Below the pieces are notes generated by a model. It was not told the origin of the DNA. It saw nothing but the letters and a program-made list of their open reading frames with translations, and did no database searches. A DNA stretch of 64,000 nt from Escherichia coli. Its GTDB lineage: Bacteria; Pseudomonadota; Gammaproteobacteria; Enterobacterales; Enterobacteriaceae. The position numbers were made by a program, and so were the translations under genes. The DNA lies in the NCBI RefSeq assembly GCF_003334385.1, contig NZ_QOWN01000013.1. The stretch is one strand, 5' to 3'. Position 1 is the stretch's first letter; each line of letters opens with the position of its first letter. Below are positions 26,098 to 26,865 of this stretch, in pieces.

Positions 26098-26156
26098 TTA
26101 ATTTATTGTCTCATGAGGTTTCGCTAAATCTCATGAAGAGCGCAAAAGTATATAAA

Positions 26157-26181
26157 ATCCACGCAATTGCGTGGATTTTTC
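26157..26181 (+). terminator. Rho-independent terminator after ychF
   Basis: atccacgc-aatt-gcgtggat followed by ttttt. Confidence 0.75.
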
Positions 26182-26865
26182 ATTTCACCGAGTCCTAATC
26201 ATTCTTGTAACATCCTACACTTTTGTGCTTATTGCCTATAGTGAACCACGAGAATAATTAAAGACATAAGTGTTCAGATGACGGATATCTCATTAGCAGT
26301 GATATAACGTAAGTTTTTGTATCACTACACATCAGCCCCCTTCACAGCTGATCAAAATTGATCACGCTCCAATATGCTGGCAAGATGAAAATGATAACCA
26401 GTAGCACAATAACAACGATAGGCCAGAAAACCCATTGACCAAAAATGAATATCGATGTTTTTTGCTTTTTCTTATTAGTAATGCAAAAATGGCGCATATT
26501 GTTTTTGTTATGCAGATACATCAAGCGAAATTCCCATAACTAATTAGGATTATTACAAAAAATCTTCACCAAATTTTTTAACCGCTGTTTGTTGTAATAT
26601 TTTTGCCATATTTATAGTAACGAATTGGAATAAGTAACGACAACTTAGGGAATAACTCGATATAAACTCACCTTTGTAAGGGGGATGTTAAATATATATT
26701 AATTCCTGTGTTCCTGATTTTGCCCGGTAATAGAGAATTATTCTCTGAGAAGCTCATCATGATTGCACCATACAAATATCATGATGATAAGAGGATATTA
26801 TTCATTGATTTAAACAAAATGACAAAATCCATAGACCCATAGTCTGGGTACTATATAGGAGTGGT

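Follow-up and report, generated by a model that had tools for sequence, protein, structure and literature searches.

What lies in the 768 bp that separate ychF from the autotransporter adhesin gene ycgV: a hidden small RNA or small membrane protein, or non-coding DNA that keeps the adhesin gene silent? We addressed this question in a stretch of 64,000 nucleotides of Escherichia coli DNA (hereafter the window, with positions counted from its first letter), which is nearly identical to K-12; the 768-bp spacer itself, used as a query, matched several isolates at 100% identity and MG1655 at 99.9%. Our analysis suggests that the spacer is very probably a non-coding composite of the ychF terminator, an AT-rich H-NS platform silencing ycgV and a region linked to ycgV, in which the one hydrophobic open reading frame (ORF) is a by-product of composition. 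Anatomy, composition, distribution, ORF statistics and the lack of RNA signal were determined here, and H-NS occupancy, promoter-island status, YbdO binding and an RpoH SELEX peak are taken from the literature.

Three-part anatomy of the ychF-ycgV spacer

The genes of this locus all lie on the plus strand, in the order pth, ychF, spacer and ycgV, and the spacer falls into the following parts:

24305-24889, plus strand: pth
25006-26097, plus strand: ychF, with its TAA stop codon at 26095-26097
26098-26865: ychF-ycgV spacer, 768 bp between the ychF stop codon and the ycgV ATG
26098-26189, plus strand: ychF 3' untranslated region and intrinsic terminator
26111-26136: terminator hairpin 1
26154-26179: terminator hairpin 2, preceded by an A run and followed by TTTTT
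26190-26709, no strand: AT-rich DNA of non-B2 E. coli, core of the H-NS-bound promoter island
26710-26865, plus strand: ycgV-linked proximal regulatory region, aligning with the Citrobacter ycgV homologue
26857-26861, plus strand: ycgV Shine-Dalgarno sequence AGGAG
26866-29732, plus strand: ycgV, autotransporter adhesin gene, with its ATG start at 26866

The spacer corresponds to 1255953-1256720 of K-12 MG1655 (NC_000913.3), where no RefSeq feature is present between ycgV (b1202) and ychF (b1203), and the RefSeq/PGAP annotation of the spacer in 11 other strains is likewise empty, except for an IS1 insertion in one of them. The GC fraction of the spacer is 0.337 as compared to 0.496 for the 64-kb window, positions 26382-26881 are the lowest-GC 500 bp of the entire window, and A/T tracts of at least 5 are enriched 3.3-fold over the window average; AT content and A/T tracts are thus both those of an H-NS-silenced region. 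The next-lowest-GC stretches of the window, at 52237-52736, 59361-59860, 62100-62599 and 63046-63545 (GC 0.33-0.35), may be four further AT-rich regions of the H-NS type.

The first ~92 bp belong to ychF. Directly after its stop codon, a G+C-rich hairpin is followed by a U run, the arrangement of a Rho-independent terminator, and this is kept even in B2 strains; the two hairpins and T run together have a minimum free energy of -28.6 kcal/mol, with z = -4.3 versus shuffles. Hairpin 2 likewise scores as a minus-strand terminator, because it is flanked by A-rich and T-rich runs. Diversity among strains is low in this part (pi 0.011), which is the only one shared with B2/ST131, where homology stops at ~26189. 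The original prediction of an AT-rich stretch with no convincing ORF between the ychF terminator and ycgV is borne out.

In ST131 (phylogroup B2), the rest of the spacer and ycgV are both absent after the terminator, which is directly followed by a tyrosine-recombinase gene and an IS-laden island whose start coincides exactly with the end of homology to the window. At the ST131 locus, positions 5080-7625, the tyrosine-recombinase gene and the ISEc24-containing island start ~215 bp past the ychF stop codon. At the opposite end of the spacer, DNA upstream of a Citrobacter ycgV homologue shows BLAST homology to E. coli from 26815, with blocks of global alignment reaching back to ~26710, and positions 26190-26709 are absent upstream of both the Citrobacter and the Leminorella homologues. 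Since ST131 homology ends at ~26189 and the Citrobacter blocks start at ~26710, the intervening ~520 bp belong to neither neighbouring gene.

Sequence diversity follows the same division. Within 26190-26709, where the DNA probably evolves almost neutrally, pi ranges from 0.028 to 0.054, and the most diverse segments of the region lie here. The segments next to ycgV, over 26621-26865, have a pi of 0.019-0.020, close to that of the coding sequences on either side (0.015-0.020). Three parts make up the spacer: a ychF terminator of ~92 bp, AT-rich DNA of ~520 bp and a ycgV-linked region of ~155 bp. The gain is a modest one, in that the bases can now be sorted into those owned by ychF, those travelling with ycgV and filler found only in E. 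coli.

H-NS binding and the origin of the AT-rich DNA

That AT-rich DNA ahead of this adhesin gene forms an H-NS-silenced leader had been proposed from the sequence; the proposal is supported, and the feature proved to be already published. The spacer harbours promoter island 1255333_301 ycgV(-)/ychF(-), one of 78 in MG1655 (Panyukov & Ozoline, PLoS One 2013, PMC3661553, Table 1). Its H-NS binding is scored 'A', which denotes all of the ChIP studies compared (Grainger, Kahramanoglou and Oshima), and column C marks it as tied to a predicted foreign gene (PMC3661553). Promoter islands are defined as regions, at least 300 bp long, in which PlatProm predicts transcription start points at extreme density; as a class they bind RNA polymerase, give short abortive products and are transcriptionally almost silent (PMC3661553). 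The published coordinates were converted as window = 26866 - (v2 coordinate - 1255175), placing the island and the other promoter-related features as follows:

~26408-26708, no strand: promoter island 1255333_301 (PMC3661553 Table 1, converted from U00096.2)
26740-26865: fragment shifted by YbdO in EMSA, located by primer positions
26797-26825, minus strand: sole strict sigma-70 consensus match (TTGTCA, 17-nt spacer, AATAAT), facing away from ycgV

In our own scans, -10-like hexamers were enriched 3-fold across the spacer relative to the window average, and a strict sigma-70 scan returned 1 site versus 5.5 expected in shuffles. The promoter density was thus not reproduced by the strict scan, and island status derives from the PlatProm predictions of the original authors; the single sigma-70 match is no evidence of function. 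We also searched the spacer for the H-NS high-affinity motif TCGATAAATT, of which there is no copy with one mismatch or fewer; two copies with 2 mismatches both fall in the terminator region, and the AT-rich part has none. This motif is not obligatory for H-NS binding. What argues for H-NS occupancy is the set of cited ChIP summaries together with general AT-richness, rather than the motif.

The spacer resembles other promoter islands (Shavkunov/Panyukov/Ozoline; for example those at appY, yfaL/ypaB and fimB/fimE) in being at least 300 bp long, AT-rich and H-NS-bound, and the island of yfaL, like that of ycgV, adjoins an autotransporter gene predicted to be foreign. No substantive difference from this class was found, our own scan being enriched for -10-like hexamers only and not for full -35/-10 pairs. 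The locus shares with H-NS-silenced cryptic adhesins (chaperone-usher fimbriae and the Ag43-family genes yfaL and ypjA) a long AT-rich upstream region, a patchy distribution and H-NS occupancy by ChIP. The spacer is a real, ordinary and already catalogued feature: textbook xenogeneic-silencing DNA before a cryptic adhesin, which in itself matters little.

Further published observations concern the spacer and ycgV. YbdO shifts the 126-bp fragment listed above and represses ycgV ~3- to 4-fold in an avian pathogenic E. coli strain (2024, PMC11681634). A weak SELEX peak for the RpoH holoenzyme lies in the spacer, at 3.2-fold with a cut-off of 3.0 (Shimada et al., PMC5493296). GalR and sigma-54 sites reported 'at ycgV' were set aside, as they fall inside or beyond the coding sequence and outside the spacer. 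None of the papers found to name ycgV together with H-NS reports on derepression of ycgV in an hns mutant.

Combining the anatomy with these published data, we posit a division of labour along the spacer. The first ~92 bp would terminate transcription of ychF and protect the gene from antisense transcripts entering on the minus strand. The AT-rich ~520 bp would serve as a platform for nucleation and spreading of an H-NS filament, and its many weak -10-like sites would bind RNA polymerase unproductively, so that the filament would keep the adhesin gene ycgV, itself a putative horizontal acquisition, silent. The last ~155 bp would travel with ycgV and carry its ribosome-binding site, the YbdO-bound fragment and presumably the ycgV promoter. 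We infer that silencing of ycgV operates through this spacer DNA.

The distribution of the locus is consistent with a foreign origin of ycgV. At least 80% of the spacer is present in 4096 of 5426 complete genomes. Across 100,044 species, represented by one genome each, close relatives of YcgV turned up only in a Citrobacter metagenome-assembled genome (MAG), with 80% identity, and in Leminorella grimontii, with 60% and 52%. In the Citrobacter MAG a porin gene, not ychF, lies upstream of the homologue, and L. grimontii carries its two ycgV-like autotransporter genes ~10 kb apart on one scaffold. The absence of ycgV and spacer from B2/ST131, together with these sparse relatives, places a probably horizontally acquired gene next to the promoter island. 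The same species scan returned two unrelated assemblies, with contigs labelled as an 'Actinomycetes bacterium' MAG and as Nocardioides malaquae, that are 99.8-100% identical to E. coli pth-ychF-ycgV; these are almost certainly E. coli contamination.

The AT-rich DNA could instead be a decayed gene or a mobile-element remnant, lodged at an integration hot spot by ychF and without present function. The left boundary at ~26189 is the exact start point of the ST131 tyrosine-recombinase island, and the 3' flank of ychF does look like an integration or replacement hot spot. High diversity, frequent indels and a substitution pattern consistent with neutrality point the same way, as does the IS1 inserted here in one strain, the chicken isolate YZMc17-1, at window positions 26641-26650 with the 10 bases CAACTTAGGG on both sides. 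Against this, the DNA showed no similarity to any phage, true plasmid or protein family. No phage match was found for it, and its nine matches in the plasmid collection all fall in non-mobilizable E. coli records, of which three measure 4.8-4.9 Mb; a phage or plasmid origin was rejected on these grounds. Such a remnant would moreover be compatible with H-NS binding rather than opposed to it, because H-NS binds DNA of this kind whatever its origin. We regard a functionless remnant as possible but on balance unlikely, and favour the non-coding composite with its H-NS platform. Silent adhesin genes can be switched on by IS elements inserted upstream of them.

Candidate genes within the spacer

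A hydrophobic minus-strand ORF of 60 codons, with no visible ribosome-binding site, had been singled out as the only coding candidate in the spacer. The ORF exists as described:

26342-26524, minus strand: 60-codon hydrophobic ORF from TTG at 26524, or 59 codons from ATG at 26521
26376-26377, no strand: deletion junction, where 75 bp (25 codons) of the long allele are lost between the direct repeats CTGGCGAGA and CTGGCAAGA

Longer than any other ORF in the spacer, it encodes one clear hydrophobic segment, which follows from the T-rich codons of AT-rich DNA. Its ribosome-binding site is indeed unconvincing, as the upstream GGGAA pairs only weakly with the anti-Shine-Dalgarno sequence (-4.2 kcal/mol, versus -6.9 for the AGGAG of ycgV) and this stretch is polymorphic among strains. 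When the spacer was shuffled 2000 times with its dinucleotide content preserved, the longest ORF in six frames averaged 61 codons and reached at least 60 codons in 47% of cases, so the ORF is no longer than composition gives.

Homology searches gave a similar picture. A word-indexed search of 5.8 billion proteins recovered 93 clusters of the ORF, spanning a wide range of lengths, and every source name given was E. coli or Shigella. With the 84-aa allele as query, exhaustive HMMER searching of 1.84 billion representatives returned only the same alleles and low-complexity hydrophobic matches. The ORF has no Pfam or NCBIfam family match, leaving it with neither a family nor homologues beyond the species.

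Among 11 aligned strains the ORF occurs in four allelic states, of 59, 84, 67 and 51 aa. The 59-aa allele of K-12 and relatives arises from the 75-bp in-frame deletion, the 67-aa allele (O157:H7, O111, O113 and others) from a CAA-to-TAA nonsense mutation, and the 51-aa allele from a 1-bp frameshift. The 75-bp segment is present in 1848 of 5426 genomes, always as a single copy, and is deleted in ~55% of the 4096 genomes that carry the spacer. At least 1367 of the 1848 carriers are exact matches to the long allele that carries the TAA stop, so the intact 84-aa form is a minority allele. We considered whether the 75-bp indel might be a miniature mobile element and rejected this, as it is single-copy everywhere; the 9-bp direct repeats that flank it point to a slippage deletion.

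Substitutions in the codons shared by the 11 strains number 14 non-synonymous to 1 synonymous, in codons that offer 142 non-synonymous and 35 synonymous sites, and they fall 9/5/2 on codon positions 1/2/3. This pattern is the reverse of that of a protein under selection and is statistically compatible with neutrality. Neither purifying selection nor an intact frame is thus seen, nonsense, frameshift and 75-bp indel alleles all being common. The ORF segment is less diverse than its immediate flanks (pi 0.028 versus 0.054), and some constraint on its DNA is conceivable. Conservation of the ORF, proposed as a check on its coding potential, was not found, as it is confined to E. coli and Shigella and is disrupted in large natural lineages.

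Could the ORF nevertheless be a genuine lineage-specific gene for a small protein of the inner membrane, with 59 aa in K-12 and an ancestral length of 84 aa, transcribed divergently from ycgV and ended at the bidirectional ychF hairpin? The hydrophobic segment speaks for such a protein, as do the terminator-like hairpin downstream on the minus strand, the in-frame nature of the 75-bp indel, the first 48 codons, uninterrupted in 10 of the 11 strains, the somewhat reduced diversity and the repeated gene-caller predictions behind the 93 clusters. Set against these are its chance length, a weak and polymorphic Shine-Dalgarno site, the lack of any homologue beyond E. coli/Shigella or family match in either protein collection, three different C-termini, a nonsense allele in at least 1367 genomes, frameshifted alleles, and a substitution pattern in which the third codon position is the least variable. 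The ORF is also unannotated in the regularly updated K-12 RefSeq record and has no entry in the searchable part of small-ORF supplements; the searchable part of the transcription start site and ribosome-profiling tables (Stringer 2021, Cappable-seq) likewise holds no match for the locus. We judge such a protein very unlikely, and rejected the small membrane protein in view of its chance length, its lack of relatives outside E. coli/Shigella, the disrupted alleles and the pattern of substitutions.

The small hydrophobic proteins and type I toxins Ldr, Ibs, Sho and TisB are likewise short, intergenic and built around one hydrophobic helix. In contrast to these, the ORF is single-copy, lacks a family match and carries nonsense and frameshift alleles, and it shows no purifying selection, convincing Shine-Dalgarno sequence or evident antisense RNA. 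Assignment to type I toxins or a known small-protein family was rejected, given that NCBIfam and Pfam gave no match. Judged from its statistics and alleles, ORF 26342-26524 is best read as a probable chance ORF in AT-rich DNA, and the population data indicate that it should not be annotated as a gene.

Alternatively, a regulatory small RNA might be concealed in the spacer, or ycgV might have a structured leader that acts in cis. In favour of this, the spacer is as long as 768 bp, a consensus-like promoter is present on the minus strand, the 155 bp adjoining ycgV are conserved into Citrobacter, and RNA polymerase binding with short abortive products is a property of promoter islands in general (PMC3661553). 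In a permissive Rfam E-value scan over 24000-30000, no family reached its gathering score. The two best matches, at 31-33 bits versus a threshold of 50, are both to Leu_leader and coincide with the terminator hairpin, and the other matches, mir-6096 and CrcZ, have E above 1 and are noise. Folding of both strands in 120-nt sliding windows gave z < -3 only over 26060-26259, the terminator region, and values from -2.3 to +1.9 outside it.

The spacer therefore offers neither a known RNA family nor a stable, conserved fold that has a separate terminator: the ychF terminator is the sole terminator-like site, and the central 520 bp, which B2 strains and other genera lack, show the lowest conservation. 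A small RNA or riboswitch was rejected on the sub-threshold Rfam matches and the flat fold scores outside the terminator, and an RNA-based reading of the spacer is highly improbable. The original prediction that a small RNA or small membrane protein may be concealed here is thus unsupported by Rfam, folds, ORF length and conservation. Scarcely credible is a further variant, in which the ORF would be a young de novo gene in H-NS-silenced AT-rich DNA, with its shared N-terminal 48 residues (a basic stretch and one transmembrane helix) functional, expressed once silencing lifts, and with C-termini still being shaped.

A second, shorter candidate, the 44-codon ORF at 26708-26842, is identical or nearly so within E. 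coli. It was rejected as a leader peptide of ycgV, because homologous Citrobacter DNA has stops in all three forward frames.

Dam sites and the state of ycgV

The flu gene (Ag43) carries a cluster of GATC sites within its OxyR site. Unlike flu, ycgV has no GATC cluster near its start codon; the spacer contains only two Dam sites, at 26350 and 26360, which lie 10 bp apart, ~500 bp upstream of the ycgV start and at the 3' end of the minus-strand ORF. An Ag43-like Dam/OxyR phase-variation switch was set aside on account of this number and distance. A preprint lists ycgV among the biofilm genes with differentially methylated GATC sites.

Turning to the gene itself, ycgV was reportedly found by Roux and colleagues in 2005 not to be expressed in laboratory K-12. 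Relative to K-12 MG1655, ycgV of the window lacks one base, a G near 29490, and differs by SNPs at 29213 and 29272. With this 1-bp deletion the coding sequence is broken into ORFs of 879 aa and 72 aa, and the C-terminal beta-barrel is out of frame; unless the deletion is a sequencing error, ycgV of this strain is probably a pseudogene. The gene is also a truncated pseudogene in O157:H7 (locus 4344-6094), where a deletion takes dhaR too and dhaK directly follows.
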